Virus record (IMG/VR): IMGVR_UViG_3300025912_000012
Span: 71,080 to 135,079 of that record
Direction: 5' to 3' (one strand)
DNA: 64,000 bases
From: a virus
Lineage: Duplodnaviria; Caudoviricetes
The translations under genes were made by a program, and so were the position numbers. The notes below the pieces were generated by a model that saw nothing but the letters and a program-made list of their open reading frames with translations, had not been told where the DNA came from and did no database searches. Of this stretch, positions 14,466 through 55,976 are shown piece after piece; position 1 is the stretch's first letter; every line of letters starts with the position of its first letter.

Positions 14466-17400
14466 TTATGCACCTTTCCCGGAGAGCTGAATCCCGGTCT
14501 TGTTGTTGCGCTTGGCTTGCTTCAGCAACGCAGCCTGGATTTTCGCGACCAGTGCCTTGATCTGCGCCTCAGTCAGGTTCAGGGTCCCGCTCTGTCCCGC
14601 GTTCACGTTGATGTTGATCGAGGTTCCGCCCTGCCCTACGAATGTCCCGGAGCGGAGATTAGGTGCGAGCATCCCCCCGTACTGAGCCATTGCCGCCTGC
14701 GCGCCCAGTCCTTTCGTTGCCCCGCCAAGCTGACTCCACAGGGAGTTGACGCCTTTAATTCCCCCGTAGTCGTTCATGATCGATTGCGCGAGAGCGTCAC
14801 CCTGCACGGGTCCTGCCGCGATCAGCTGGGAAATGATATTCTTGTTCAGCTTTCCCTTGCGGAGAGTCGCGATGTCTTTTGTGAAAGACTGCACTGACCC
14901 GAGATAGGACTGCATCTGCTCGTAGACGGTCCCCCCGCCTGAGCCCGGGGTAACATTCATGTTCCCGAAAATTCCCGAATCCCCGAAGCCCTGACCTTTC
15001 ATTGCAGCAGAGGCAACGTTTCTTGCCAGCCCTACCTCCTGGCTGATCTTTTTCACCAGAGAGGTTGCTATCTCTTTCGCGGAAGCGGAATTCTTGATTT
15101 CTTTCGCGATAGCCCCGGAAAGAGTGAACGCGAATTCTTTCGCAATTTTCGCCAGGTCCGACGCGGGAATCCCCCCGCTGCTTTTCGCATGGGGAACAAC
15201 CCCGCCAGCCGCGAAATGGGATGCGGAAGACTGGGGAACTCCCCCGAACCCGGGAACCTTATGTGCCGCCAGGATAGGCGCGATCAGCGGGACAAGATAC
15301 CTGGGGATAATTGCCTCCCCTGGTTCAAGCATCGCGGGAATGATATCTCCCAGCCCCGTCCCGGGGACCATTCCCCCGGTCTGCATCCCGATCCCCTTCG
15401 TGGTTACCAGCCCCCCGTAATGCCCATGGGAAAGCAGATATCCAGGGGAGACTCCCGCCGCTACGCTTTTCGGGACACCCAGCTGGGTGTGGACTGTGTT
15501 GATGTAGTTAGTAACCACGTTCGTGGTTACAGTTACCGTCTTCCCGGTGAGTCCCGCGATGGCAGCCTGGAGAGTCTGCACAGGGTGTGAGTTCGCGTAA
15601 GCAGCCACGTTCACGTTTTTCCCGTGCAGGCTGTTAACCAGCTGCTGGAGGGTCTTGACTTTCCCGTCCCCGGTGACCTGTGCCTCGATCTTCAGTCGTA
15701 CCGCTTTCGAGACACCTGCCTGCCGAAGCACGGCATCCAGGCTGGCTTTCATCGCAGCCCCGCCTTGCACTCCAGCTGCCCGCAGCTGGCTTACCATGTC
15801 CTGCACGGCGCTCTGATTGATCATCGGACCACCGAAAGTCCCGCCCCCGAATTTACCGCTCGCCCCGGCAGTTGCTGTCTTCTGGATTGCCATTGCATCC
15901 TGGTAGACTTTAGCCAGCCGGTGCGCCCCGACCTGGGCACCCGTGTAATCCGCAAACTGCTTTGCCACCTCGGGCAGGTTGGCTGACGCGACGACAGTAT
16001 CGGTCATGTTCTTGTTGAATGTCTTTGAACTGCCAGCCATTCTCGTGATCGACTGCTCAGCGCTCTTGAAGTTCTGCGCCAGGGACTTGCTCGTATCGTA
16101 ATATCCGGTGACCCCCATCTGGGCACCCTGCTGCATGAGCATCGCAAGAGCTGACTTGGACTGCCTTGCCTGCGGAAGAATGGACTTCAGCTGGAAGGCG
16201 CTCATTTCCTGCGCCTGCGGGAGTCCCGCAGTCCCGAGTGTCAGGTAGGTCCGCATCTGGTCATTGAAACCCTGCATCTGGGTGATGAACCCGGGCTTAG
16301 ACGAGCTTGTGGATGCGAACGCCTGCCATGCTGCCGCCCCGCCAGGAGTGGTATAGGAGGTGAGAGCTTTCGCTATCGCAGCGGCAGGTGCCGCGCCCGC
16401 TGCTGCTGCCAATCCCGCTCCGGTAGGACCGCCAGCGATGATCTGCTGATAGGAGTCCATTGCCTGATTGACTTTCGCCAGGTTCTGCATTGCACCCTGG
16501 CTCATGATCGTCTGCCCTGCGACAGCAGCCCCGAACGCCCCGGAAGATTGCGTCATCGGGGCGATGACCCTCGCGTAAGAGGTCACCATTTCTTGCGCAG
16601 CGGCAGTTAGCTTCCCGTTTTTCCCGAACGCATGGGACATGTCCAGCATCGCGTTCTGCCCGATCTGGAACGCGTCCGCGAGGGAAACGCTTTTCAGTCC
16701 TGCCTTTTTCAGTGCAGCCATCAACTCGGGAGCTGAATTAGCCAGGTTCCCCATCTGGGTTGCGAAACCCTGCATCCCCGCCCTGTACTGATTCGCGTCA
16801 TATGTCGGGAGGGTTGCCAGCCTCTGTGCTGCCCGAGGGTCGGGGCTGACATTAACAGGAAGCCCGAGAGCCCCTGCTTTTCCTACATATCTCCCGGAGG
16901 TAGCCGCGAGTCCGCTGGCAGTAGTGACCGCATGCGCGAGCGGCTGCCAGGCATCACTGAAACCAGCCTGGTTAATGCTATCCTGCAGCCATCCCAGTCG
17001 CTGCTGCGGGAGGTTTTTAGCGGTAAGTCCCGCTGACATCAGGTAAGCAGTTCCCCCGAGGAGACCCGCAGGCCATCCGGCGATACCCGCGAGCGCTTCC
17101 CCAGCTCCGGATATCCCTAGCCCGAGACCTTCCAGCATTCCCCCTGAGGCTCCCATTCCCCCGAGGGCAATCCCGCCTTTGGAGATCAGTCCCCCGAGTC
17201 CCCCGACGCCTTTAAGTCCGAGCATCCGCCCGATAAGCCCTTCCCCCCCGAGCAGCGCCGGTCCCCAGCGGGACGCAGCCTCATAGGAGAGCAGTGCTCC
17301 GATAACAGGTCCGGGAGTGTCGCGGGTGATTCTCGCGAGCAGCCCGGTCCCGCCCTGGACGGTGGACAGCAGATCCTGCCCGACCCCGGGGAGGTTGGGC

Positions 17401-18593
17401 GCAACATTCAGCAGGGTGTTCCCGATATTCGCCCCGATGTCCCCGAACTGGCGGAGGTATTCGGGACCTCCTCCGAGAGCATCGGAAAGCCTCTTCCCTG
17501 TTCCGCCTTTAGTGAAGTTGATCGCCATCTGGGCAAATCCCCGGTCCAGCATGCTCAGGGTGTTCGTGCCCATGTCGATGAAACCCTGACCGCCTCCGCT
17601 CTGGAGGATTCCCAGGAGACTCCCTGCGATATCATACCCGGCACCCTGCGCCCTGTCCTGAGCTGTCTGCAGTGCCGTCCCGCCCCCGAGGAATTTCCCT
17701 GTGGTCATATTGAAGGCATCCCCGAGGGCTTCACTCGTGGTGAAAATCGCCTTGTATCTCGGGACCATTGCCTCAATCGACTGCACTCCGACAAGGGCAG
17801 CCGCACCCGCTGCGGTCAATGCAGGGACAACAGTGGCTGCAACCTCGGCGGTCATCATCCCCCAGAAGCGGACAGCATTCCAGCCTCCCCCTCGCCAGGG
17901 GACAAAACTCCCGCCGCCGCCCCCGGAAGGACTGCCGGTCCCGAAAATCGTGCGAGGATTAATGCCGCCGTCACCGCCGCCGCCTGCTGCCATGCGGGCA
18001 GCCATGATGGCTGCGGCACCTCCGCCACCGCCACCCCCGCCCCCGCCTGCTGCGCTGGCAATAGCGGCATCGATGATGCCCGCGCCATCCCTGTTCTTGC
18101 CTCGTGTCGCTGCAGCAAGATAATCAGAGGTTCCCTTATGGATAGCCGCAATACTGGTAGCAGCATCGTCAGCTTCTTTCCTGACCGCTTCCAGCTTTTT
18201 ACGGTAATCATCAAGGGCTCTTGAGCCTGATGCTATCGAGGTAGTAGTATCGTCATGCGTCCGACCCAGCTCCCTGACCATGATCGCCTGATCGCGGGAG
18301 GCATTCTGAAGGTTGGCATACATGTGCACTGCGTCTTTGACAGCCTCAGTATGCTCTATGACTGAAGCGGAACCCTCCCTGTTAGCCATGACCATGGAAC
18401 TCATGTCGTTCCTGAGATCAATGTTGATCTTCATCATTTCTCTCTGGGAGGCAATCATGTCATCGATGGCGGTCCTGTTTTCCTTCGCCATCTTGATAGC
18501 CGCAATGACAACCTCGTCAGCGGCTCTCGTATATCCGCTGCTGTCAGCGTCAAAACGCTGAGTTACATCAGGTAGACCGCCAGCCTTAGGCAT
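14466..18593 (-). CDS. tape measure protein
   Basis: 1375 aa; Ala/Gly-rich helical; AMLEPGE motif; downstream of tail tube and chaperones. Confidence 0.85.
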   Translation of the reverse strand: MPKAGGLPDVTQRFDADSSGYTRAADEVVIAAIKMAKENRTAIDDMIASQREMMKINIDLRNDMSSMVMANREGSASVIEHTEAVKDAVHMYANLQNASRDQAIMVRELGRTHDDTTTSIASGSRALDDYRKKLEAVRKEADDAATSIAAIHKGTSDYLAAATRGKNRDGAGIIDAAIASAAGGGGGGGGGGAAAIMAARMAAGGGGDGGINPRTIFGTGSPSGGGGGSFVPWRGGGWNAVRFWGMMTAEVAATVVPALTAAGAAALVGVQSIEAMVPRYKAIFTTSEALGDAFNMTTGKFLGGGTALQTAQDRAQGAGYDIAGSLLGILQSGGGQGFIDMGTNTLSMLDRGFAQMAINFTKGGTGKRLSDALGGGPEYLRQFGDIGANIGNTLLNVAPNLPGVGQDLLSTVQGGTGLLARITRDTPGPVIGALLSYEAASRWGPALLGGEGLIGRMLGLKGVGGLGGLISKGGIALGGMGASGGMLEGLGLGISGAGEALAGIAGWPAGLLGGTAYLMSAGLTAKNLPQQRLGWLQDSINQAGFSDAWQPLAHAVTTASGLAATSGRYVGKAGALGLPVNVSPDPRAAQRLATLPTYDANQYRAGMQGFATQMGNLANSAPELMAALKKAGLKSVSLADAFQIGQNAMLDMSHAFGKNGKLTAAAQEMVTSYARVIAPMTQSSGAFGAAVAGQTIMSQGAMQNLAKVNQAMDSYQQIIAGGPTGAGLAAAAGAAPAAAIAKALTSYTTPGGAAAWQAFASTSSSKPGFITQMQGFNDQMRTYLTLGTAGLPQAQEMSAFQLKSILPQARQSKSALAMLMQQGAQMGVTGYYDTSKSLAQNFKSAEQSITRMAGSSKTFNKNMTDTVVASANLPEVAKQFADYTGAQVGAHRLAKVYQDAMAIQKTATAGASGKFGGGTFGGPMINQSAVQDMVSQLRAAGVQGGAAMKASLDAVLRQAGVSKAVRLKIEAQVTGDGKVKTLQQLVNSLHGKNVNVAAYANSHPVQTLQAAIAGLTGKTVTVTTNVVTNYINTVHTQLGVPKSVAAGVSPGYLLSHGHYGGLVTTKGIGMQTGGMVPGTGLGDIIPAMLEPGEAIIPRYLVPLIAPILAAHKVPGFGGVPQSSASHFAAGGVVPHAKSSGGIPASDLAKIAKEFAFTLSGAIAKEIKNSASAKEIATSLVKKISQEVGLARNVASAAMKGQGFGDSGIFGNMNVTPGSGGGTVYEQMQSYLGSVQSFTKDIATLRKGKLNKNIISQLIAAGPVQGDALAQSIMNDYGGIKGVNSLWSQLGGATKGLGAQAAMAQYGGMLAPNLRSGTFVGQGGTSININVNAGQSGTLNLTEAQIKALVAKIQAALLKQAKRNNKTGIQLSGKGA

Positions 18594-35683: not shown

Positions 35684-38437
35684 TTACTCTGTAATCCCGC
35701 CGCGCTTGTCCAGCTCGTTACGGGCTGCTTCCCGCTCATGCGGGTTCTCACTCGTACGCCAGACGTGATGCAGCTGGCGGTTAATCATCTGCTGAGTGCG
35801 CTCCGCGATCTCAGCCTGCTTGGTAACAGCCACCGGCTGTACCGACTTCATGGCAAGACCTGCCCATGAAGTAGTCTTGGGGTCAGCAGCGTTAGCGGCA
35901 GCCTCCCAGCGGGCTTCCTGCTCGCTGATAGTTGCCTGCTGCTTGTTGATCTGCTCAACCAGCGGAGCAATAGCATCCGCGATGGCAGACTTGATAATGT
36001 CCTCAGAGGAAACCTCGGGGGCGCTCTTGGTAATCTCGGGAGTCTCCGCAGCCTTCTCGACAGGAGCCACGACGGGAGCCTCAGTCTCGAACCCGAGCAT
36101 CTTAAGGGCTTCCTCGCGGGTGATGATCCCGCTCTCGAACTGCGTCTTGACAAGCTCAGCCTGCTGCAATTCGAGTGCCTTCTGGGTTACCCTGCGACCC
36201 AGCTTGGTGCGAGCCTCATCGACAGTCATCTTGCCTGCGAGCACCTTCTTGCCCAGCTTCTTCTTCATCCCCTTCTCAGCGAGAGCAAGGAACTCAGCAG
36301 AAACCTCGGGGGTCTCGACAGTCTTGGAGAGAGCCGCGTCAGTCTCAGCGACCTCAACCTGCTTGCCCAGACCAGCCGCAGGCGGAATGGGGCGAGACTC
36401 GGGCTGCGTCACATTCTGCGTCATCGGGCACAGCGGGGGGAACATCCGCGAAACGTTATCGTGGATCAGGGAGAGCGCCTGGCGTGCCTTCTCCTTTTCC
36501 ACGTGCGCGTAATCGATCCGCGTGGGAACTCCCTGTGCGTCTGGGTACTCAGCTCCGCCCTTCATGTGAGAGGGGCTTGGAGACTGATGTCCCGACGCCA
36601 GCGGGGGACGGTCAAACGAATGCGCGTTGGGGGAGCCGCTGGCAACATCCGGGGAGGAGTTAGGTCCGTCATACCCCGGGGAGTTAGCGGCGTGCCCTGC
36701 GGTGATCACCGGGCGGTTATACCCGTTCGGGGTAACCGAACCAGGGGAAGGATAGCTGGTGGGACCAGGGTTAGCATCCCTGAACGCCTTGTGCAGTTCC
36801 AGCCGGTAGTCGTTCAGCTCAGCAGCATCAGCGGACTTAAGGGTCTGCGCCGCGCTCCATGCCTTCGTCAGCTCCAGTGCGGTCTCGATAGGACCGCAAG
36901 CCGCGTCAACAGCCTTGCGCTGCCACACGTCCAGGTCAATCACCGAGGACAGATCCGCGTACGGGTGATACTTGCTAACCTCGTCCGGGTGATATGCGGG
37001 GCAGGTCAGGTCGTGCAGCTTACCCAGGTCCGTGTCAACCCCGACAGACTTGAACCGCATGAGTGCTGCGGTCTCAGGGGAACCCCCGACAGTCTTAAGG
37101 TCAGCAGTACGGATACCACTCGGGGCGGGGGTTTCCAGCGCCGGTCCGGTGTTGGGGATCTCATTCATAGCCTGAGCATCACTGGCACCGCTGGCAGACT
37201 GGGGAGTCCCGGAGCACTTCTCGGAGTGAACGTGATCCATCTTGCAGGAATCATCGTCATCCCCGGAGGGCTTCTTGTCATCGTCGCCATTCAGCCACGG
37301 GGGCATCTTCTTGCCCTTGGGCTTCTTAGCCTTCTCCTCACCGACAGAATCGGTAACGGCGTCATCGTCCCCGTCTTTCAGCATGGCAGCGTCAAGATCC
37401 TTGTCCGCACCCATGCCCATGCCCGTCATGTCATCCTTGAGGACTTCCGGAGCAGCAGTCTCTTCGACCACACTTGTGATTCCTTTCTCCGAGTCCTCGG
37501 AGTCATTAAGTGGATTGGGCACATGAAGCCTTTCTGCTTCGCTTGCGATAAGGCGACGTGCGCCCGCAACGTTACCGTGACCGGTTCTTGCCAGATGTGC
37601 GGCATTATGCAGGTCCCCGGCATTCTCAATGGGATACGAGCCATCCGGGAGAGCATGCCCCTCGGATGCAAGCCGCCTTCTGGTAGCGGTGTTGATGTCA
37701 CGCTTATATACTGCCTCTTCGGCCTCGTACAGGGCTTTCAGGGCAAGCTCGTCGTAATGCTGGTCGATGATCTTCGACTTGAGGATTTTAGCGAGATCAT
37801 TCGGGGTGAACGTGAGGCTCATGTCGTCCGCGAAAGGAACCTGGGCACTTTCGTCTTTCGTTACCAGGTCTTCCCCGGAGAACTTGGCGATGATCTCGTC
37901 ATCCGCGTGCATCTCCTGGACGTATTCGCAGGAGTCGCCAGCGGACTTAGCGATATCCAGGTACGAGGACTTATTGCTGGGACGGTCAACCACGGATACT
38001 TCCGCGAAATCCCCGCCGCAGATGCGCCCGTTGCGGACCCGAGGGTCATGCTTGATAACCGGACGGGAAATCCCCACGGAGTAAGCCTGGAGGACGCCCT
38101 TCTTGATCAGCTTCTGCGCCAGCGGATCAACGATGACGGCGGTCAGCCAGTGCTTATCCGTGCCATCCTTGTTGATCTCGACTTTGAGACCTTTCCCGAT
38201 GGGGCGGTGAGCATCGTGGGACATCCGGACATTACCACCGGTTGCGAGCCAGTCCCCGAGGGCTTTTGCGGACCAAACCGGATCTACGATCTGGTCGTCC
38301 GAGTCTACGGTGCCATCGGTCGCGATCCCCTTGATAATCAGGTCCCCGTCATCATCCTGCTCCCACTTGAGAATGGGGATGGAGATGTGCACAAGATCCT
38401 GTGCAGTCTCCGCAGGGGCAGCTAGCGTAGTAGCCAT
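35684..38437 (-). CDS. prohead protease-scaffold fusion
   Basis: VDSDDQ; RMSH; AYSVG; EVSVVDRPSN; long charged scaffold tail. Confidence 0.85.
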   Translation of the reverse strand: MATTLAAPAETAQDLVHISIPILKWEQDDDGDLIIKGIATDGTVDSDDQIVDPVWSAKALGDWLATGGNVRMSHDAHRPIGKGLKVEINKDGTDKHWLTAVIVDPLAQKLIKKGVLQAYSVGISRPVIKHDPRVRNGRICGGDFAEVSVVDRPSNKSSYLDIAKSAGDSCEYVQEMHADDEIIAKFSGEDLVTKDESAQVPFADDMSLTFTPNDLAKILKSKIIDQHYDELALKALYEAEEAVYKRDINTATRRRLASEGHALPDGSYPIENAGDLHNAAHLARTGHGNVAGARRLIASEAERLHVPNPLNDSEDSEKGITSVVEETAAPEVLKDDMTGMGMGADKDLDAAMLKDGDDDAVTDSVGEEKAKKPKGKKMPPWLNGDDDKKPSGDDDDSCKMDHVHSEKCSGTPQSASGASDAQAMNEIPNTGPALETPAPSGIRTADLKTVGGSPETAALMRFKSVGVDTDLGKLHDLTCPAYHPDEVSKYHPYADLSSVIDLDVWQRKAVDAACGPIETALELTKAWSAAQTLKSADAAELNDYRLELHKAFRDANPGPTSYPSPGSVTPNGYNRPVITAGHAANSPGYDGPNSSPDVASGSPNAHSFDRPPLASGHQSPSPSHMKGGAEYPDAQGVPTRIDYAHVEKEKARQALSLIHDNVSRMFPPLCPMTQNVTQPESRPIPPAAGLGKQVEVAETDAALSKTVETPEVSAEFLALAEKGMKKKLGKKVLAGKMTVDEARTKLGRRVTQKALELQQAELVKTQFESGIITREEALKMLGFETEAPVVAPVEKAAETPEITKSAPEVSSEDIIKSAIADAIAPLVEQINKQQATISEQEARWEAAANAADPKTTSWAGLAMKSVQPVAVTKQAEIAERTQQMINRQLHHVWRTSENPHEREAARNELDKRGGITE

Positions 38438-39425: not shown

Positions 39426-42400
39426 TTAGCGATTCCCGGGATCACTGCCCTGGTGTATCTGAGATGAATGCGTCTCAAGTGCCTGCTGCATCCATCGTTC
39501 GGGCACGGTGCCAACATACGCAAGTACCGGCTTGTTCAGCTTGAAATGCCGTGCCATTGCCCTGTGATGTCCGTCAATCACGATCGCACGACCGTCAGGA
39601 TGATCGGCTCGCTGGACTAGAATGGACGGATCAGTGTGTGCCCCGCCTTTAGCGATCTCTTTCGCGAACCTGGCAACAGCCTCAGGCTGATGTGATGCCG
39701 CCCAGGAATCAATATCGTCATCATCCACTCTCTCCCAGGGGACGTTGACTGGACCGATCCAGGTGCTGTGCTTCACCCATTCGAGAGCTTTATCGGGGAA
39801 ATTCCCTTCTAGCTGGGCGTATACATGACGCCACTCAACCGGGTTAGGATCGCCTATGTCAGCCGCCCCTTTTGGGAGGGTAAGCATTGTCCTGTTGTTG
39901 CGGCGAGCCTGCTTGAGGAGATTTTCCTGGATTTTCCTGGTCAGCTGCTCGATCTGCTTCGCGGACAGTTTCACGCCCGAAAGATCGTGAACAACATCGC
40001 TTTCCCTGTCAGGGTCCCACTGCTCAACAGTATCCGCAGGGTTGAACACCTCAGGAGGCTCTGAATGCGGAGACATGGGACGCGGGGTTCTCGCGGGAAC
40101 TGACCCTACTACAGGATGTACGCCTTTCCCGCTCGGGGGAACTCCTGTGTTCGCAGATATATTCTGAATCCCGGTGGAGTTAACTTCCTGCTCCTCTGGA
40201 TCTTCCACCACCGGGAAACCGCCAGCAGGAGTCTTACGTCTCCTCGCGGGGGGCTTTTCCCGTTCCTCCGGGAACTCGTCCTCGTGACCACGCGGATACA
40301 CCCTGGTCTGCGGGGGAGCGTCCATCCTGTTCGCCTCGAAATGAGGAGGATTACCTCCCGGGGTTGCCCCTGGATAGCCGCCAGGACCCGCATCCCCGAA
40401 CTCCTCACCGTTAGCGTGGTGAGGATATACCCAGCGCGAACCCATCCCGGCTCCGTGCCTGTCAGGGTCGTCTAGGACCATCCATTCGCCGTTTTCGTTG
40501 ACGAGATTCTGCGGAGATTTCATGTCCCCTAGCTGGTCACGCAGGTGGATTTCTTTCACCCAGTCGTCGCGGAACTTCCCGACAAGATCAAGATCTTCGA
40601 TCTCGCCCCTGCGGAACCACGCGGTGGAAAGAGTTTCCTCCGGGGTGCTCCCGTTCATCAGCGGCTTGAACATGTTCGTCTCGCACAAGTACAGGTATGC
40701 AGTCTTTCCGTCCGGGTCCTGGTGGGTGAAATCACGGATCACAGTGAGCGCGGGGAGAGCCCCGATTTCCTCTTCCGTCTCCCGGTAAGCAGCACTCCAC
40801 CCGGGTTCGTCAATATGAGTGGTGCCCCCGGGCATTCCCCAGGAACCATCAGGACGCTGCTGGAGAAGATACCGCCATTTTCCCTTCTCATCCTTTGCCC
40901 GGATGAGCAGCCACGCGGTACGGGTACTGTCTTCTACGTTAGAGTCCGACTTTCCCAGGTGAGACTGAGGAGGGACGATATTCATCCCAGCGGGGAGCGG
41001 GACGCACCTGCACTGTACGTGACAGGGACCCCCTAGACCCCCGCTGGAAAACGGGGCGTCCAGGGGGATCGGTCCCTCGTTCGCTACCTTCCTGCAGATC
41101 TTGCAGGCGTCATCAGGGGCAATCCCCAGGTGCTTGTGCGTTACCCCATTATCGCGGTAGCACTGGATAACCCCTGCGTTCAGGGCGCGGGCAATCTCGG
41201 TCCTCGCGATGACCTCACTGCGGGAGTTCGCGTTTTTCAGTCCTGTGCGGGCAACCTGGTCCAGCCAGTGAGCACCCTCGGTGTCGAGGAACGCCTGGAG
41301 ATTATCAGTAGTCCCCAGGATTCCCGCGTCTTTCCCTAGAAGCTGATTCGCGGAGCTGTATCCGAGATTCCATGCTTTCTCCCAGAGCGGGGTCATCACC
41401 TCAGTGAGAACCTCCCGGACTTTCTCCGAGATCAGGTCGTACATCACCCGGTTGGGGATCATTAGCTTCCCCACCGCGACCTGCTGGCGGATTTCTGAAC
41501 CCGCCTCTTCTGCTTTCGCGAAACCCTGGGCGATCTCCTGCTTGTATCTCCCGATGAGACCTAGGTCATGCTCCCATCCTGGAAAGGGGGCATCAGACTT
41601 CTCCAGGTTCCATCCCACCGGGTACTTCCACCAGGTAGGGTCGAGAGCATTTACCGTGTTCTCGTCAACAGGAACAGGAGCGATAGGGATTTCGGGAGCA
41701 AACTTCTCGGTCATGTCGAGAGCGCGGTCTATCGCGGTGTCCAGCATGACGCCTTTCGCGATATCCTCCGCGATCATCCCGAGAATGCGGTTCGTGATAT
41801 GCACTGGCTCCCAGGAAGTAATCTCCCTGCCCTTGCGGAGGTGTCGTTTCAGGGATTCCAGCTCGCTGGCAGCAGCTTTCTTGCGGCTCCCTGCCGTGCT
41901 TGTCCTGTTAGTGGTCCCGCCTGTCCTTGGAGTGGGAGACTGGACGGCACCCTGGGCAGCCTGGTGCTGCGGAGTGCCGACGCCTTCGCGATGAGGAGAC
42001 AACGGGGCTGGGTGGCTGCCATTCGGCTTGGTTCCCCCGCCTTTACGCGGCTTTGGCTTCTTCTTGACTGCTTTCTGACCGCCGTTAGTACCCTGACCGC
42101 CAGCAGCACCGCCCTGTGCTGCCATCATGATCAGTTCGGCTGCCATCTTGAAAGGCACGGGACCCTGCGCGGTAAAGACAACAGGCTCCCCGGTTTCGTC
42201 AAGTCCCCACGGGGGAAGATCGAGACGCTCGCGGACCTCATCAATGCTCGCGATGCCATTCTGGACCTGCTGTACGCCTAGTTCAGTGATAGCCTGCTTG
42301 TCTTCGTCGTTGACAAGCCCCTCGAACTGGAACTGCATGTCATGCTGCTGGCAGATGTCCTGAATAGCGTAATTGAAAATATTGCAGATGAACTTGAGGA

Positions 42401-43670
42401 GAGGCTTCGCGGATTTCCGGGACTGGATACTCCGTGATTCCTGTCCTGCCATCCTGATACCGGAAGCAGAAGGTCCCGTTGGGGTTGCCCCGACGTTCGG
42501 GATGATCCCCAGCTCCTCAGGCTGCACATCCGCTGCCATGCATACCTGGTTCATGACCAGGAAGTCAAAGCTGTCAGAAAGGTCAACGGGGCGCTGCGGC
42601 TCAACCTTGCTCCCTGGAGGGAGAACGACTACTTTCAGGTGATACGCGGGGTCTCCTGCGATAGCGTTCAGCGCGTTCTGAAGCTCCCCGATCTGCGTGG
42701 GAGTGATGTTCGTATCGCCAGGCGAAATGTAAACCGCTGGAACTGTGCCTTCAGTGAAGTAGTTAAGCTGGAATTCCTGCTTCTGCAACCCGGAGATAAT
42801 CGGGAGGAGCGCCCTCTCGATGAACGGGAATCCGTACGGAGTCTCCCTTCTGCTCACCAGGGGCGCGTACAGCATGATATCGGAGGAGAATTCGTTGACT
42901 TCAGCCCCGGCAAGCCCCGCGTCATCGATATCCCTGCCAGTAGCCATCGTCATATAGTCACTACGGGGAACCCCGTAGAGATATTGCTGGTACGCGGGGG
43001 CTGGAGGGCGGGGTCTCCCGCCATGCAGGTCGAGAAGGGGTCGGATTGTCGGTCCGGAGACGAGATTCAGGGAGTCCAGGTCACTCCCGAGGAGCCCTCT
43101 CCCTCCCATTCCGATGGAAGCTCCGTATTTCGGGCGGTAAATGACCGCGAGCGCGTCATAAACGAAGATTTCCTCAAGCAGCGCGTCCAGGAACGAGGAA
43201 AATGACCAGTAATCAGGGTCCGGGCGCTTGAAAAACCTGGTAACCTCTGCTTTCCGCTCCCCGAAGTCCCGCATAGCCTTACGATCACCCTGGTAAGCCT
43301 TCGCGGCGTCCGTGGTCATCGTGATTTCCCAGTTCAGCCCCAGGATTTCGTCTTTCCGCAGCTCAATGCACTGCCGTGCGACAGAATAACGCTCAGAAAG
43401 GGTTTTCAGCTGCTCAAATGAGCATAGTTTCAGCCCTTCAGATCCCGGCTGGGTGGGAAGGTTCCACCCAACGGGGTACTGCCACCATCTGGGGTCCGCG
43501 AAAAGCCCGCCAGGGGGAGGAGTGTCCAGCGGAACAGGCTGGATCGGGGACATCGGGGCGAAAGCGCCATCGGTGAACACGCTGCTCGGGCGAGGCAGGA
43601 ACGGACCATAGGAATCCTGGTACGGATTCGCGTACATGGCGTTCGCCTGGACAGGGGAAATGCGACCCAT
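39426..43670 (-). CDS. portal-MuF-Nudix-ParB-like polyprotein (may start at ATC 43754)
   Basis: Portal motifs (YGFP.IE, YFTEGTVP, IDEVRE..DLPP); MuF (ARTEI..C..C..HVQCRC); Nudix box; IDGHHR. Confidence 0.88.
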   Translation of the reverse strand: MGRISPVQANAMYANPYQDSYGPFLPRPSSVFTDGAFAPMSPIQPVPLDTPPPGGLFADPRWWQYPVGWNLPTQPGSEGLKLCSFEQLKTLSERYSVARQCIELRKDEILGLNWEITMTTDAAKAYQGDRKAMRDFGERKAEVTRFFKRPDPDYWSFSSFLDALLEEIFVYDALAVIYRPKYGASIGMGGRGLLGSDLDSLNLVSGPTIRPLLDLHGGRPRPPAPAYQQYLYGVPRSDYMTMATGRDIDDAGLAGAEVNEFSSDIMLYAPLVSRRETPYGFPFIERALLPIISGLQKQEFQLNYFTEGTVPAVYISPGDTNITPTQIGELQNALNAIAGDPAYHLKVVVLPPGSKVEPQRPVDLSDSFDFLVMNQVCMAADVQPEELGIIPNVGATPTGPSASGIRMAGQESRSIQSRKSAKPLLKFICNIFNYAIQDICQQHDMQFQFEGLVNDEDKQAITELGVQQVQNGIASIDEVRERLDLPPWGLDETGEPVVFTAQGPVPFKMAAELIMMAAQGGAAGGQGTNGGQKAVKKKPKPRKGGGTKPNGSHPAPLSPHREGVGTPQHQAAQGAVQSPTPRTGGTTNRTSTAGSRKKAAASELESLKRHLRKGREITSWEPVHITNRILGMIAEDIAKGVMLDTAIDRALDMTEKFAPEIPIAPVPVDENTVNALDPTWWKYPVGWNLEKSDAPFPGWEHDLGLIGRYKQEIAQGFAKAEEAGSEIRQQVAVGKLMIPNRVMYDLISEKVREVLTEVMTPLWEKAWNLGYSSANQLLGKDAGILGTTDNLQAFLDTEGAHWLDQVARTGLKNANSRSEVIARTEIARALNAGVIQCYRDNGVTHKHLGIAPDDACKICRKVANEGPIPLDAPFSSGGLGGPCHVQCRCVPLPAGMNIVPPQSHLGKSDSNVEDSTRTAWLLIRAKDEKGKWRYLLQQRPDGSWGMPGGTTHIDEPGWSAAYRETEEEIGALPALTVIRDFTHQDPDGKTAYLYLCETNMFKPLMNGSTPEETLSTAWFRRGEIEDLDLVGKFRDDWVKEIHLRDQLGDMKSPQNLVNENGEWMVLDDPDRHGAGMGSRWVYPHHANGEEFGDAGPGGYPGATPGGNPPHFEANRMDAPPQTRVYPRGHEDEFPEEREKPPARRRKTPAGGFPVVEDPEEQEVNSTGIQNISANTGVPPSGKGVHPVVGSVPARTPRPMSPHSEPPEVFNPADTVEQWDPDRESDVVHDLSGVKLSAKQIEQLTRKIQENLLKQARRNNRTMLTLPKGAADIGDPNPVEWRHVYAQLEGNFPDKALEWVKHSTWIGPVNVPWERVDDDDIDSWAASHQPEAVARFAKEIAKGGAHTDPSILVQRADHPDGRAIVIDGHHRAMARHFKLNKPVLAYVGTVPERWMQQALETHSSQIHQGSDPGNR

Positions 43671-44139: not shown

Positions 44140-47097
44140 TTATCCTTCTGTGATAAACACGTCTCCTGTTGACCAGTCGGTAAACGGAGCGCCAGTCTCC
44201 CAGAGAACAAAAACATCCCCGGTTGACCAGTTGACGAACGGATTCCCCGCCAGCCAGTTAGTGAATACGTCCCCCGTGGTGAACGTTCCCTGCCGTACCG
44301 GGATATTCTCGACGGGACCGCCAGGATTCCCGTAGGTACGCCCGCGTGGCGCATTCTTCGGGATGATCCCCCGGATGGGATGAACCGCCTGGACGAACCT
44401 CGGACCCCTGGTGGGGTTGTGAACCGGGGCACCCTTATTGAAGTACGTCCGTCCCCTGACCGGAAGGGAGGGGCGTATTCTCGCAGGCGCATTCCTGGGA
44501 ATAAACCTTACAGGCGTCGGGGTGACGGCAACCGGGGTTCCCGGGTTACGGTAAACCCTTCCTCGTACGGGGAGCGGCTGGCGAGCCCGGATTGGCTCAT
44601 TTACCTGGCGGAACACTGGTCCGGAGGTGACCAGAGGTGCCCCGTTATCGGAGTAGACCCGACCCCGCATGGGCAGCGGGATTCTTGCCTGTACCGGGTG
44701 GTTCAGCGGGACGAAACGGGGACCCTGGCTTGGCGGGTTGTTTACCGGGGCACCAGGATTACCGTAGGTACGACCCTTGCTCCAGGTTTGCAGTATCTGC
44801 GACCGGATCGGATCCGTTGCCTGGCGGAACTGCGGACCCGTGGAAGGGTTCCTGACCGGGGCTCCGCTGTTACCTGCGACACGTCCGCGTGGAGGCTGCG
44901 TGATACGGATACGCGCAGGGTCGTGTCTCGGATAGAATACCGGACCGATGACAACCGGGGGCGGATTCTGGACGGGACCGCCCGGGTTGGAGTAAACCCG
45001 ACCTTTACGCGGGAGCGGATCAGCAGACTGTACCGGGAATGTCTTCTGCCGGAATACCGGACCAGCACTCGGGTTGCGTACCGGAGCGCCCGCGTTCCCG
45101 TATGTTCTGCCTCGAATGGGAAGACTCGGGCGGATTCTCGCAGGGTAATTCTTCGGGTAGAAAACTGGTCCTACGACAACCGGAGGCGGGTTCTGAACTG
45201 GACCACCGGGGTTGCTGTAAGTGCGTCCCCTGCGTGGCAGCGAATCAGTCGCCTGGACAGGGAAAGTCTTCTGGCGGAATACAGGACCCGTGCTCGGGTT
45301 CTGTACGGGAGCCCCGTCGTTAGAATATGTCCTGCCGCGAAGCAAAGGCTGCAATGGCAGCTTAGCGTGCAGCGCCTGGACTGCGGGATAGAATACCGGA
45401 CCGGTAGTCTTGATAGTCCCCTGGCTGGAGTTTACCCTGCCTTTGGAGAATGTCTGCGGAATCGGGGCACGGACAGGACGGGGAAGCTGCCGGAACTGCG
45501 GACCTGTAGATGGATTGCGTACCGGCGCTCCGGGGTTGGAGCTGATTCTCCCCTTTGAGAACGTCTGGGGAATCTCACTGCGAACCGGGTCAGTTACCTG
45601 ACGGAACTGGGGACCAGTCGAGGGATTCTGTACGGGAGCGCCAGAATTAGACCCTATGCGTCCTTTGGAGAAAGTCTGCGGGATTCTGCTACGAACTGGT
45701 CCTTCAAGGGGGTAAATCCGAGGACCAACCGCAGGAGGAGTGACGGTTACGGAAGTACCCGGATTGGACGCGACTCGTCCCTTGCGAGGGAGAGGATCAG
45801 CAGCCGCAATCGGGTATTTCTGCGGATAAAATACAGGACCGCGTGAAGGGTTCCTGACTGGAGCGCCAGGGTTCGACCCTATGCGACCAGCGCGGGGTGC
45901 CAGCTGGGGCAGCCTCCCGCGTACGGGACCTTCTAGTGGGTATACAGGAGGTCCGCGATGCGGGTTGATTACCGGGGCACCGAAGCTGCTCCCGATACGA
46001 CCAGCTCTAGGCTGCCAGTTCGGGATGATGAACCGTACCGGGGTTTTCCGCTGGATAAAGACAGGACCCGGAGTGGGATTGCGTACGGGAGCACCGCCGC
46101 ATCCCATTCCCCCACCAGGGCGACCCCCTGATACGGGACCGGAAATGTTCCCTGTCCCTACCGGCAGCTCAGCGAAAACCCCCCCGGACTGTGACTGGAA
46201 CAGGGTGATTTTTGCCCGGACAGCCCAGCGGAACGGGTAGAACGGGGGTCCGACTGTGGGGGTCGGAGGAGGGGCGACAGTGGCGCTGGGAATGAATGTC
46301 GCCATTCCCAGCCCGACACGGACCGGGACGGAGATGTTTCCGACCGGATGGGACCATGCGGAGTTCAGCGTCGGTCCGGACTGGGCAGCGGCAACGACGA
46401 CGATTGCACCCGCCCCGAAGGCAAGCGTGCCAGTACCGCTCCAGGTTGTTACGTCACTTGCAGTCGCACCACTGGTAACGTTTGCAAGGTAAGCGGTTCC
46501 AGTGTGAGCGACGCTGCTAGTCGCCCCATCATTTGCGCCATTCGTCCACGAAGCACTGTAAGTTACTGTCGTGGTACCAGCAGTACGTTCGCGGCAGGCA
46601 ACTGATATGGCAAAATGACCAGCACTGCTGACATTAGCACTCGTGGTGGTCGTAGTGGTCGTGATTGTGGCAGTGCTGGCACCGCTAGATTGAGTACCTG
46701 AAACATCAAGCGGATTCAGTCCTCTTGCACCGGACAGCTCGTAAATAGTGCAAGTCATCGCGAACGTCGTAGTACCGCCCGCGTTCGTCATCGTGAACGT
46801 CGTGTCGCCGTTAGACTCAGTACCGGTGGCTACCTTGTACCAGATGTCAACAAGGTTGGTGCAAGCCGTAGCGCTGCCGACTCCGATATTGGTAACGAAG
46901 TTGGTTGGGAGCAGTCGCGTCCACCCAGCCGAAACAGTGCTTGTCGGGCTTGCAGTAGCCGTACTTCCGACTCGGGAGACAACCGCGACCAGCAGGTTTC
47001 TGGCAGTCGGAGTCTGACCGTACGTGCTGGTAATGGTAGTGCCAGCAGTAACCCGGGTAGCGTTTCCTACGGCCCCGACGAGCGCAATAGCCACCAT
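44140..47097 (-). CDS. Thr-rich beta domain + ~16 Pro/Arg-rich repeats (probable virion protein)
   Basis: GPxF...RGR..SNPGAPV.NP repeats; C-terminal W.TGD.F 9-mers. Confidence 0.8.
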   Translation of the reverse strand: MVAIALVGAVGNATRVTAGTTITSTYGQTPTARNLLVAVVSRVGSTATASPTSTVSAGWTRLLPTNFVTNIGVGSATACTNLVDIWYKVATGTESNGDTTFTMTNAGGTTTFAMTCTIYELSGARGLNPLDVSGTQSSGASTATITTTTTTTSANVSSAGHFAISVACRERTAGTTTVTYSASWTNGANDGATSSVAHTGTAYLANVTSGATASDVTTWSGTGTLAFGAGAIVVVAAAQSGPTLNSAWSHPVGNISVPVRVGLGMATFIPSATVAPPPTPTVGPPFYPFRWAVRAKITLFQSQSGGVFAELPVGTGNISGPVSGGRPGGGMGCGGAPVRNPTPGPVFIQRKTPVRFIIPNWQPRAGRIGSSFGAPVINPHRGPPVYPLEGPVRGRLPQLAPRAGRIGSNPGAPVRNPSRGPVFYPQKYPIAAADPLPRKGRVASNPGTSVTVTPPAVGPRIYPLEGPVRSRIPQTFSKGRIGSNSGAPVQNPSTGPQFRQVTDPVRSEIPQTFSKGRISSNPGAPVRNPSTGPQFRQLPRPVRAPIPQTFSKGRVNSSQGTIKTTGPVFYPAVQALHAKLPLQPLLRGRTYSNDGAPVQNPSTGPVFRQKTFPVQATDSLPRRGRTYSNPGGPVQNPPPVVVGPVFYPKNYPARIRPSLPIRGRTYGNAGAPVRNPSAGPVFRQKTFPVQSADPLPRKGRVYSNPGGPVQNPPPVVIGPVFYPRHDPARIRITQPPRGRVAGNSGAPVRNPSTGPQFRQATDPIRSQILQTWSKGRTYGNPGAPVNNPPSQGPRFVPLNHPVQARIPLPMRGRVYSDNGAPLVTSGPVFRQVNEPIRARQPLPVRGRVYRNPGTPVAVTPTPVRFIPRNAPARIRPSLPVRGRTYFNKGAPVHNPTRGPRFVQAVHPIRGIIPKNAPRGRTYGNPGGPVENIPVRQGTFTTGDVFTNWLAGNPFVNWSTGDVFVLWETGAPFTDWSTGDVFITEG
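44290..46070 (-). repeat. ~16 degenerate coding repeats of 34-39 aa
   Basis: Counted by eye in the translation. Confidence 0.85.
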
Positions 47098-54284: not shown

Positions 54285-55976
54285 TTACAGCTTCCTGCCC
54301 GCGAGCCAGTTCCTCGGAGTATACCCTGGACCTGTAGCATTTCCTGAGACTTTCATCACCTGTGCCATATACACATTCGGGTCAGGGGCGCACTCGGGGC
54401 AGGTTTTCAGTTTCATCGGGTACTCGTGTCCCTGCGGGCAGTTCCGATAATAAGCAGCTGACCAGCGGATCGCGGACTTTCTCCTCGTATTATCTGGCTC
54501 TTTCGCCTCCGCAACCACAGGGGTCCCGCAATGCTTGCATCTTTTGTCGATATAGACGTGAACGTCTTCCCCGCAGCCTTTACACGCGGAAAACCCGTAG
54601 ATTTCCTTGTAGTTGACTGCCCCGAATCCGCAGAGTTCCCGCATCGCGTACACCCATGCGTCTGCCCTGTCATCATGGGCTTTCACCCGGTCGTCATAGG
54701 AGGTGAGGGCGCACAGCTGCCGCTCCAGTTCCTCGAACTGACCACGATCCCCCACCATGTGAATCCTCCCCTGTTCTGCAAGAGGAGACACTGGCTGCGC
54801 CCTGATCTTCTTTGAGTTCATCGCCTGGATCAGTTTCAGGGGGATATAAGGGTCTTTCTGGTACAGCATTCCCTTGAAATAGTCCCCGACCCCGTTTTTC
54901 TCCCCAACCACGAGGGAGGCATCCCACCGGTAATAAGCATCTACCAGCGCGTCCATGACCTTATCCGGGGTTCCCTGCATAGAGCAATCCTGGAGGGTGT
55001 ACAGGTGATGATCTTCCCCTTCCGCGCAGACCGCGATCCCGGTTTCGTCGCTTTTGATATTGGAGGAGCTTGCCGGGTCTACCGCTACTACGACTCTCCT
55101 GAAATCAGGGACCTCGTGTTCTTCCACCCGGTACTCGTCAAACCATTCCATCTGGAATAGCGCCCCGGGGATTTCCGCGATAAACTCACCCTGCAGCTCC
55201 TGCCGTTCCAGGAACGTCCCCTCCCCGAATTTGGAGGTGACTTTCGCGATCATCTTCCCGACGCCTTCGGCTTTCCAGTTCTCGGAGCTGGTGGCGCGGG
55301 TGAAATGGAACCTGCTCGGGTCTCTTTCCGCTTCCTTGATGATTTCCCGGAGGAGTTTCGTGTTTCTCGGGGTGGTGGTGATCATCAGCTGACCTTTAGA
55401 GGTTCGCAGCGCAGGAAGGAGACCTGCCTCGTAGAACTCGGGGTAGCGGATAATCCCCAGCTCGTCAAACCAGCAGTAACCCAGGTTAGCGCCTCGGATA
55501 GATTCAGCTTTCTCAGCGGAATACCCCTGGATTATGCTCCCGTTGCGCAAGGTGATACGGAGATCGTTTTTGTTGTGGTCGATGATCTCGCCTGGCTGCG
55601 CCGCGTTCTTGATCCCGGAGGGACCTTCGAAACAGGTGTTTTTCACGTCCGCGAACGTTGGAGCGCAGACCGCGACCCAGATGCCCGGCTCGGAGAGCCC
55701 CCTGGAGAGCGCCCAGTTGGCTCCTGTGAGGGTTTTCCCGAACCCCCGCCCCGTCATGAGCAGCCAGGTCTCCCAGTCGGGATAGGGACGCTCACAGCCG
55801 CACGACTTGCCTGTCCTTGGGTCGGGGAGGTGATGCCTCGGATGGTCCGGGGGGAGCTGCTTGTTGTACGCCTGGACTTCCCACGGGCGGGGCTCGACCT
55901 CGGCTTTCTTCGCGAGGATCGCCTCCCGGATACGTGCCCGCGTTTCCGGGGATAGTTTCGAGAAATCTTTGCCCAC
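54285..55976 (-). CDS. terL: terminase large subunit with C-terminal Zn ribbons
   Basis: GRGFGKT; WFDE; TTTP; AVDPA; HDDRADA. Confidence 0.95.
   Translation of the reverse strand: MGKDFSKLSPETRARIREAILAKKAEVEPRPWEVQAYNKQLPPDHPRHHLPDPRTGKSCGCERPYPDWETWLLMTGRGFGKTLTGANWALSRGLSEPGIWVAVCAPTFADVKNTCFEGPSGIKNAAQPGEIIDHNKNDLRITLRNGSIIQGYSAEKAESIRGANLGYCWFDELGIIRYPEFYEAGLLPALRTSKGQLMITTTPRNTKLLREIIKEAERDPSRFHFTRATSSENWKAEGVGKMIAKVTSKFGEGTFLERQELQGEFIAEIPGALFQMEWFDEYRVEEHEVPDFRRVVVAVDPASSSNIKSDETGIAVCAEGEDHHLYTLQDCSMQGTPDKVMDALVDAYYRWDASLVVGEKNGVGDYFKGMLYQKDPYIPLKLIQAMNSKKIRAQPVSPLAEQGRIHMVGDRGQFEELERQLCALTSYDDRVKAHDDRADAWVYAMRELCGFGAVNYKEIYGFSACKGCGEDVHVYIDKRCKHCGTPVVAEAKEPDNTRRKSAIRWSAAYYRNCPQGHEYPMKLKTCPECAPDPNVYMAQVMKVSGNATGPGYTPRNWLAGRKL

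Follow-up and report, generated by a model that had tools for sequence, protein, structure and literature searches.

Why would a phage portal protein carry the conserved motif of its own N-terminus a second time, in the middle of the chain? The question is raised by a gene of the IMG/VR virus record IMGVR_UViG_3300025912_000012 (Duplodnaviria; Caudoviricetes). We analyzed a stretch of 64,000 nucleotides, positions 71,080 to 135,079, which is the right-hand part of the 135,079-bp record (G000) and is referred to here as the window. The gene, defined by its open reading frame (ORF) and by Pfam and PHROG matches, encodes a fusion of a portal protein, a conserved segment predicted to be disordered, a MuF domain, a NUDIX domain and a ParB-like C-terminus. 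A first-pass annotation, made from the letters of the DNA, had proposed that the internal copy is a second docking peptide, which competes for or re-occupies the N-arm site of the portal in order to anchor the MuF module. In our analysis the internal copy is probably a lineage-restricted, in-frame insertion of the portal N-terminal motif into the predicted disordered spacer between the portal and MuF parts. The gene and the two copies are:

39426..43670, minus strand: gene for the 1414-residue portal, disordered segment, MuF, NUDIX and ParB-like fusion protein
43458..43562, minus strand: copy 1, the native portal N-terminal motif, residues 37-71 (FAPMSPIQPVPLD...DPRWWQYPVGWNL), read from the translation and present in all ~128 family N-termini
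41604..41702, minus strand: copy 2, the internal copy, residues 657-689 (FAPEIPIAPVPVDENTVNALDPTWWKYPVGWNL), found by BLASTP and scoring 38 bits against a hidden Markov model (HMM) of the family motif

Translation of positions 43458-43562 and 41605-41702, between which the first-pass annotation had placed the repeat, reproduces both of its quoted peptides exactly and within one ORF; the start of copy 2 was correctly placed and its end was one base short, the last codon ending at 41604. When residues 1-120 were compared with residues 121-1414 by BLASTP, the motif recurred with 21/35 identities (48 bits, E 2e-11); the next segment had an E value of 1.2 and no other match fell below E 1. The 38-bit score of copy 2 (E ~1e-11) was obtained with an HMM of the N-terminal motif built solely on other members of the family, the window's own cluster being left out. 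The whole record of 135,079 bp holds just these two copies and no third. The similarity of copy 1 and copy 2 is, by these alignment scores, real homology.

The motif that recurs is found at all ~128 family N-termini in the form F.P..PI.P.P.D..PPGG...PR.W.Y..GWNLPT, with F37, P39, P42, I43, P45, P47, D49, P51, P60, R61, W63, W69, N70 and L71 invariant or nearly so in copy 1. It is present in Thermoanaerobacterium phage THSA-485A as FGPLSPPQPFPLQGEPRQWQYRPAWNIP, and Arthrobacter phage Sonali retains the half PRLW..TGYN. Judged from the aligned N-termini, this portal family has here a genuine linear motif whose conservation is deep. In the AlphaFold2 monomer model copy 1 has a predicted local distance difference test score (pLDDT) of ~40 and lies ahead of the confidently modeled portal core, and such predicted disorder fits a linear motif that would become ordered only upon assembly. 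Among PDB sequences, the portal half and the family profile found no portal relative and Nudix matches only, and our search of the literature found no account of what portal N-terminal tails do that could be applied to it.

Copy 2 keeps the F together with P39, P42, I43, P45, P47, D49, P60, W63, W69, N70 and L71 of this motif. It is without R61, where Thr or Ala stands, and without P51, the PPPGG core, P72 and T73. Arg61 is invariant in 113 aligned relatives and is present in THSA-485A and Sonali as well; not all of the residues that are invariant in the native motif are therefore retained in the internal copy.

How widely is the second copy distributed? The 120 best homologues are 58-86% identical and for the most part portal-MuF-Nudix fusions, encoded by contigs of up to ~135 kb. 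Of this set the window's protein alone has two copies; the motif HMM gave nothing above 4 bits for a second copy in the ~120 other homologues. A search of 5.8 billion clusters with residues 640-700 returned the window's own cluster alone, whose proteins are at least 90% identical. Copy 2 is absent from 26 shorter MuF or MuF-Nudix forms, and Sonali and THSA-485A have one motif copy each and no second. A phmmer search of 1.84 billion representatives with copy 2 itself (38 residues) yielded two spurious matches to repeat proteins, the query being too short to be informative on conservation. Across the window's cluster and contig L003 (IMGVR_UViG_3300025949_000530 / Ga0207667_10010538), which are independent assemblies, three variants of copy 2 occur. 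The variant of L003 and of protein P0133 differs from that of the window by I to T, T to A and an insertion of TAS, and these changes fall at positions that are also variable in the family motif. The variant of protein P0132 reads FAPET, a gap of three residues and then PVPADENTINALDSAWWNNPVMWN; P42-I43, P60, Y65 and G68 are gone through changes of P to S, Y to N and G to M and the loss of PIA, and its motif HMM score is 8 bits as against 38-42 bits in the other variants. Viral contigs searched with a degenerate DNA pattern of the P0132 type gave no match. The second copy, which the docking proposal would have conserved in homologous portals, is in these searches confined to one narrow phage lineage, a single cluster of at least 90% identity, and is eroded within it in P0132.

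The place where the copy sits bears on how it arose. Its immediate surroundings are:

41703..41885, minus strand: three-helix block, residues 596-656, upstream of the spacer (…AEDIAKGVMLDTAIDRALDMTEK), pLDDT >90 in two models
41703..41708, minus strand: left GAGAAG hexamer, E655-K656, immediately ahead of copy 2, from the sequence
41598..41603, minus strand: right GAGAAG hexamer, E690-K691, immediately behind copy 2, from the sequence
40956..41597, minus strand: MuF module, residues 692-905, downstream of the spacer and beginning SDAPFPGWEHDLGLIGRYK, from AlphaFold2 model mac92aaf60b0f and Pfam and PHROG matches

Copy 2 fills the spacer between the conserved blocks ...AEDIAKGVLLDTAIDRA... and ...[FW]PGWEHDLGLVG.YK..., and in other lineages this spacer is 18-72 residues long and unrelated in sequence. 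The three-helix block ahead of it is conserved throughout the family. In two AlphaFold2 monomer models copy 2 has a pLDDT of 37-51 between flanking helices above 90, and no docking of copy 2 is predicted in either; copy 1 is equally undocked in the monomer. At the DNA level a direct repeat of GAGAAG brackets a 99-nt insert (TTT...CTG). This hexamer occurs 3 times in the 4245-nt gene, and a preceding hexamer recurs 90-120 nt downstream at about 1.1% of gene positions. To judge from the DNA, the repeat looks like an insertion footprint.

The flanks TEK/F and LEK/S are present as the first-pass annotation described them, but its view of the copy as a Lys-bounded cassette did not hold. Both Lys residues are ancestral flanks and not parts of the cassette, because relatives lacking the cassette have them: L014 reads DITEK, then 25 unrelated residues, then APFPGW, and L015/P0005 has an unrelated spacer followed by VGKSATPFPGW. 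In 72/80 relatives a Lys precedes the [FW]PGW block by no more than 8 residues, in 53 of the 80 as K-[S/A/T]. This K-[S/A/T] upstream of the MuF-side block (~41590-41600) is independent of the cassette and, from its recurrence, may be a conserved processing or interaction site. An internal translation start at M653 was also considered and rejected, since L014 does not have this Met and nothing resembling a Shine-Dalgarno sequence precedes it.

In this clade the gene is itself mosaic. The portal half of P0132 equals that of P0133 (449/449 in the core; 620/622 identical over the first 656 residues), its MuF half is near that of the window (207/211 residues) and its Nudix domain differs from both. 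The joint lies at or near the spacer with copy 2.

The sequence of copy 2 also bears on its age. As the first-pass annotation had stated, its codons differ from those of copy 1: nucleotide identity is 59/99, and the same codon is used at 10 of the 21 identical residues, with Trp making up three of these 10. The proportions of synonymous (pS) and non-synonymous (pN) differences between the two copies are 0.82 and 0.28, to be compared with a pS of 0.65-0.70 and a pN of 0.30 for the most distant sampled family members. The window gene and its cassette-less relatives L014 and L015 are separated by a pS of 0.53-0.57, which is shallower than the split of the copies. Copy 2 has the family-consensus string PVPVDE where copy 1 of the window gene and of L015/P0005 has PVPLDT. 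Because of the saturated synonymous sites and of PVPVDE as against PVPLDT, these comparisons make it unlikely that copy 2 is a fresh duplicate of the gene's own 5' end. The source was probably, on the same comparisons, either a diverged portal gene of the family, from which the motif was captured, or an older duplicate that the other lineages have lost. Of the N-termini sampled, none stands clearly nearer to copy 2 than does copy 1 of the same gene (22 vs 21 identities).

In the simplest reading of the footprint, an ancestor with ...ACC GAG AAG TCT GAT... (TEK-SD) would have gained the insert together with a 6-bp duplication. Recombination, either illegitimate or microhomology-mediated, would have brought the 99-nt stretch encoding the Pro/Trp-rich N-terminal motif in between the three-helix block and the MuF module, where these mosaic genes may have a recombination and indel hot spot. 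The insertion is probably young, and it is confined to the lineage. Copy 2 would today be mainly part of a flexible tether, and if it still bound the N-arm's partner to some extent, this would be a putative by-product rather than a conserved localization mechanism. Lineage-specific insertions occur in the variable linkers of mosaic phage structural genes. Copy 2 resembles them in being in-frame, in lying at a hot spot with a short direct repeat, in forming a predicted disordered loop and in being restricted to a terminal clade. It differs from them in that it is not random in content, copies a strongly conserved motif of its own family and shows signs of short-range purifying selection.

Several observations weigh against an insertion that is simply tolerated. 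Most of the invariant Pro, Trp, Asn and Leu positions are kept in copy 2 despite the saturation of its synonymous sites. Between the window and L003, which are separated by a synonymous divergence (dS) of ~0.32-0.45, copy 2 differs by 6 synonymous changes, 2 non-synonymous ones and one 3-codon indel; the changes correspond to a dS of 0.32, a non-synonymous divergence (dN) of 0.027 and a ratio of the two (omega) of 0.085; neutrality is rejected (binomial p 0.003). By these counts copy 2 is not drifting freely in the window and L003 lineages. The erosion in P0132, in addition, was measured at the protein level, and the P0132 assembly is mosaic.

The same selection data have a second side. The omega of the whole gene is 0.079, and linkers elsewhere in the protein that are poorly conserved have a similarly low value (0.09 in linker2). 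The upper 95% limit for copy 2 is ~0.6, a rough estimate from eight changes, and this range still fits a constrained linker. Between the window and P0132 copy 2 has 8 substitutions and 3 gap positions in 33 residues (Fisher test versus the remainder of the protein, p 8e-4), and P0132 by itself has 6 unique substitutions and a 3-residue deletion there. When the three variants are compared, no other part of the first 900 residues varies as much as copy 2; in copy 1 only 1/35 positions changes (L to M). As controls for dN/dS in the spacer, L004/L015 and L005/L016/L017 are uninformative, being identical sequences, and so are L018/L019, which have the same spacer with diverged flanks. A diversity-generating retroelement was considered for the P0132 changes and rejected, as the pattern is not adenine-specific.

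The alternative that survives best is a docking function restricted to the clade, in which copy 2 would mimic the N-arm and bind a neighboring portal subunit, the capsid or the scaffold, thereby retaining the MuF-Nudix-ParB cargo at the portal vertex. The purifying selection between the window and L003, the retention of most invariant positions and the placing of the substitutions and the indel of L003 at family-variable positions would all be expected of it, as would the disorder of the native motif in the monomer model if the peptide binds in trans. But among the relatives searched no copy 2 occurs outside the cluster, in known portal-MuF fusions or in stand-alone MuF forms; Arg61 and the PPPGG core are missing; P0132 has eroded; the monomer models predict no docking; and the low omega is matched in poorly conserved linkers. 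A docking tag is, besides, unneeded as an anchor, given the covalent fusion of MuF to the portal. We therefore hold docking in this clade to be possible but doubtful, and we would say the same of any clade-specific function of copy 2. A particular form of the idea is that the captured motif acts as an intramolecular mimic, occupying the N-arm groove and parking the cargo at the portal vertex until ejection, with a recent birth and a renewed loss in one sub-lineage; as a structural proposal this seems unlikely to us. What stands of the first-pass interpretation, then, is the repeat, the order of the domains and the genuine native motif; its docking tag is largely unsupported, the second copy being neither conserved in the family nor predicted to dock in the monomer models, and a tolerated insertion describes copy 2 better than a docking tag of general use. 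The wider suggestion, that the polyprotein generally uses copies of virion interfaces as localization tags, is likewise unsupported by conservation.

Could the second motif be an old feature of the family instead? The common ancestor's spacer would then have held it, and all other lineages would have lost or replaced it. A split between the copies as deep as that of the most distant family members would agree with this, as would the consensus-like PVPVDE of copy 2 and the short stretches of PVPVD or PIAPLPV that the P0007 and P0010 spacers contain. These Pro-rich strings are, however, of low complexity and stand in another register; the motif HMM gives at most 4 bits in the spacers of ~120 relatives; and many independent losses would be needed, including in the close relatives L014 and L015. 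We regard an old family-level duplication as improbable.

A third possibility is that the copy marks sites of release, a prohead protease cutting TEK/F and LEK/S after Lys in the manner of HK97 and so freeing the MuF-effector module or a 35-residue peptide. The Lys at both borders and the K-[S/A/T] just upstream of [FW]PGW in 53/80 relatives might suggest as much, but both Lys are ancestral and present without the cassette, the borders are one duplicated hexamer at the DNA level, and a family-wide cleavage at K-S would leave the copying of the motif unexplained; on the sequence evidence such a role is very improbable. Chance similarity or an assembly artefact, for which nothing but the shortness of the match speaks, is hardly conceivable in view of the E value of 2e-11, the 38 bits against an independent profile and the same arrangement in independent JGI, ENA and Logan assemblies and in L003, which differs at synonymous sites.

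The identity of the protein that probably received the insertion rests on the following further parts:

42111..43418, minus strand: portal core, residues 85-520 (wing, stem, clip, crown), AlphaFold2 model m607a5cd8c63e
41886..42110, minus strand: segment predicted to be disordered, residues 521-595, pLDDT 35-44, near-invariant across the family

Residues 60-587 match the portal profile phrog_2662 with E 3.5e-48 in the PHROG search. The Pfam Phage_portal domain (PF04860) scores 38.9 bits, slightly below its gathering cut-off of 39.1 bits, and is found in precomputed annotations of relatives of the protein. The core of residues 85-520 was modeled confidently by AlphaFold2 and was matched by Foldseek to solved portals, namely those of phage 812, HK97, the gene transfer agent (GTA), lambda and T5, with probability 1.0 and E values between 4.5e-10 and 1e-6. 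Profile and predicted fold thus both indicate a portal protein. Upstream of the fusion gene, at 54285-55976 and likewise on the minus strand, a large terminase subunit is encoded (phrog_2, 1.9e-31); the fusion gene sits in the packaging/head module near terminase, in agreement with a portal gene.

For the MuF part, Pfam Phage_Mu_F (PF04233) scores 19.9 bits, below the cut-off of 29.6 bits, and is precomputed on many relatives. The MuF core (residues ~810-898) matches the PHROG minor head protein family phrog_115 with E 6e-9 and a head morphogenesis family with E 1.5e-8. The model of the module, mac92aaf60b0f, has a mean pLDDT of 87.5; a wide VIA-align search for its structural relatives gave generic helical matches only (Z <=6.6) and was discarded. 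The NUDIX domain occupies residues 918-1029 (Pfam, 2.6e-10), and the C-terminus has a ParB-like DGHHR motif.

Between the portal crown and MuF, residues 521-595 have many near-invariant columns in 113 family members, with the pattern GSHPAP..PHRE..TP.H.AA.GA.QSPTPRTGGT.SR.S.AGSRKK, and over residues 521-610 the window and L003 differ by 17 synonymous and 0 non-synonymous changes. This segment is, by prediction, a conserved disordered element.

Several observations were made on other parts of the gene and its neighborhood. The ParB-like C-terminus (residues 1231-1414; 39426-39980, minus strand) has a dS of 1.37 between the window and L003, as against ~0.4 elsewhere in the gene, and a 32-residue indel; it is much more diverged than the remaining gene, which suggests that the C-terminal module has been exchanged. 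Within it, residues 1233-1269 (39864-39974, minus strand) resemble the C-terminus (14466-14582, minus strand) of the ORF at 14466-18593, taken for a tape measure protein by the first-pass annotation, whose report of such a copy is borne out: the match is to the last 38 residues of this 1375-residue ORF, with 20/38 identical (E 5e-5). That ORF has no match in Pfam or PHROG. It is one of several very large ones in the late operon, at 44140-47097, 35684-38437 and 14466-18593 (all on the minus strand; 985, 917 and 1375 residues), for which Pfam gave no match and PHROG at most a match of unknown function. In P0005/L015/L004, the closest cassette-less relatives, the portal domain is broken after ...LNLVSGP by an insert of ~350 residues that begins CYSDDTEVLTRRGW... 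and that looks, from its sequence, like an intein; the window's gene has no such insert.

How does the protein compare with systems already described? Fusions of portal, MuF and in some cases an effector belong to the class of 'polyvalent' virion proteins described by Iyer et al. 2017 (PMC5512222). Gp3 of Arthrobacter phage Sonali is annotated as a 'portal and MuF-like fusion protein', and gp3 of Mufasa8 is likewise an example. Fusions of the Sonali gp3 type share with the window protein a single polypeptide in which MuF and an enzymatic cargo (NUDIX) come after the portal, the portal family phrog_2662 with its N-terminal F.P..P..P.P...PR.W.Y..G.N motif, and the location in a packaging/head operon downstream of the large terminase subunit. 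They differ, together with the ~120 metagenomic relatives, in carrying the motif once; the window protein has the second, partly degenerate copy in the spacer between portal and MuF. A functional precedent for a MuF module at the portal inside the head is provided by SPP1, in which gp7 (MuF) binds the gp6 portal non-covalently in 1-2 copies per capsid, as cited in Jamet et al. 2017 (PMC5576092). In SPP1 separate proteins associate, whereas in the window protein MuF is covalently fused and a docking peptide would be unneeded for co-localization; gp7-type proteins are not known to have any counterpart, in sequence or structure, of an N-arm-like peptide, and it is found in 0/26 shorter forms. Portal-MuF(-effector) fusions are thus already known, and the new feature here is the internal copy of the motif.

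What the copy means depends on which reading is right. If it is merely a tolerated insertion, its value is descriptive, and it marks the spacer between portal and MuF as a hot spot of insertion and recombination. If copy 2 does bind what the N-arm binds, it would show, as an experiment of nature, how phages make cargo-localization tags by copying interface peptides of the virion, and it could be used to identify what the portal N-arm interacts with. The family itself is a large uncultured group of ~130-kb phages with portal-MuF-Nudix polyvalent proteins, and the case draws attention to the deeply conserved linear motif at the N-terminus of its portals.

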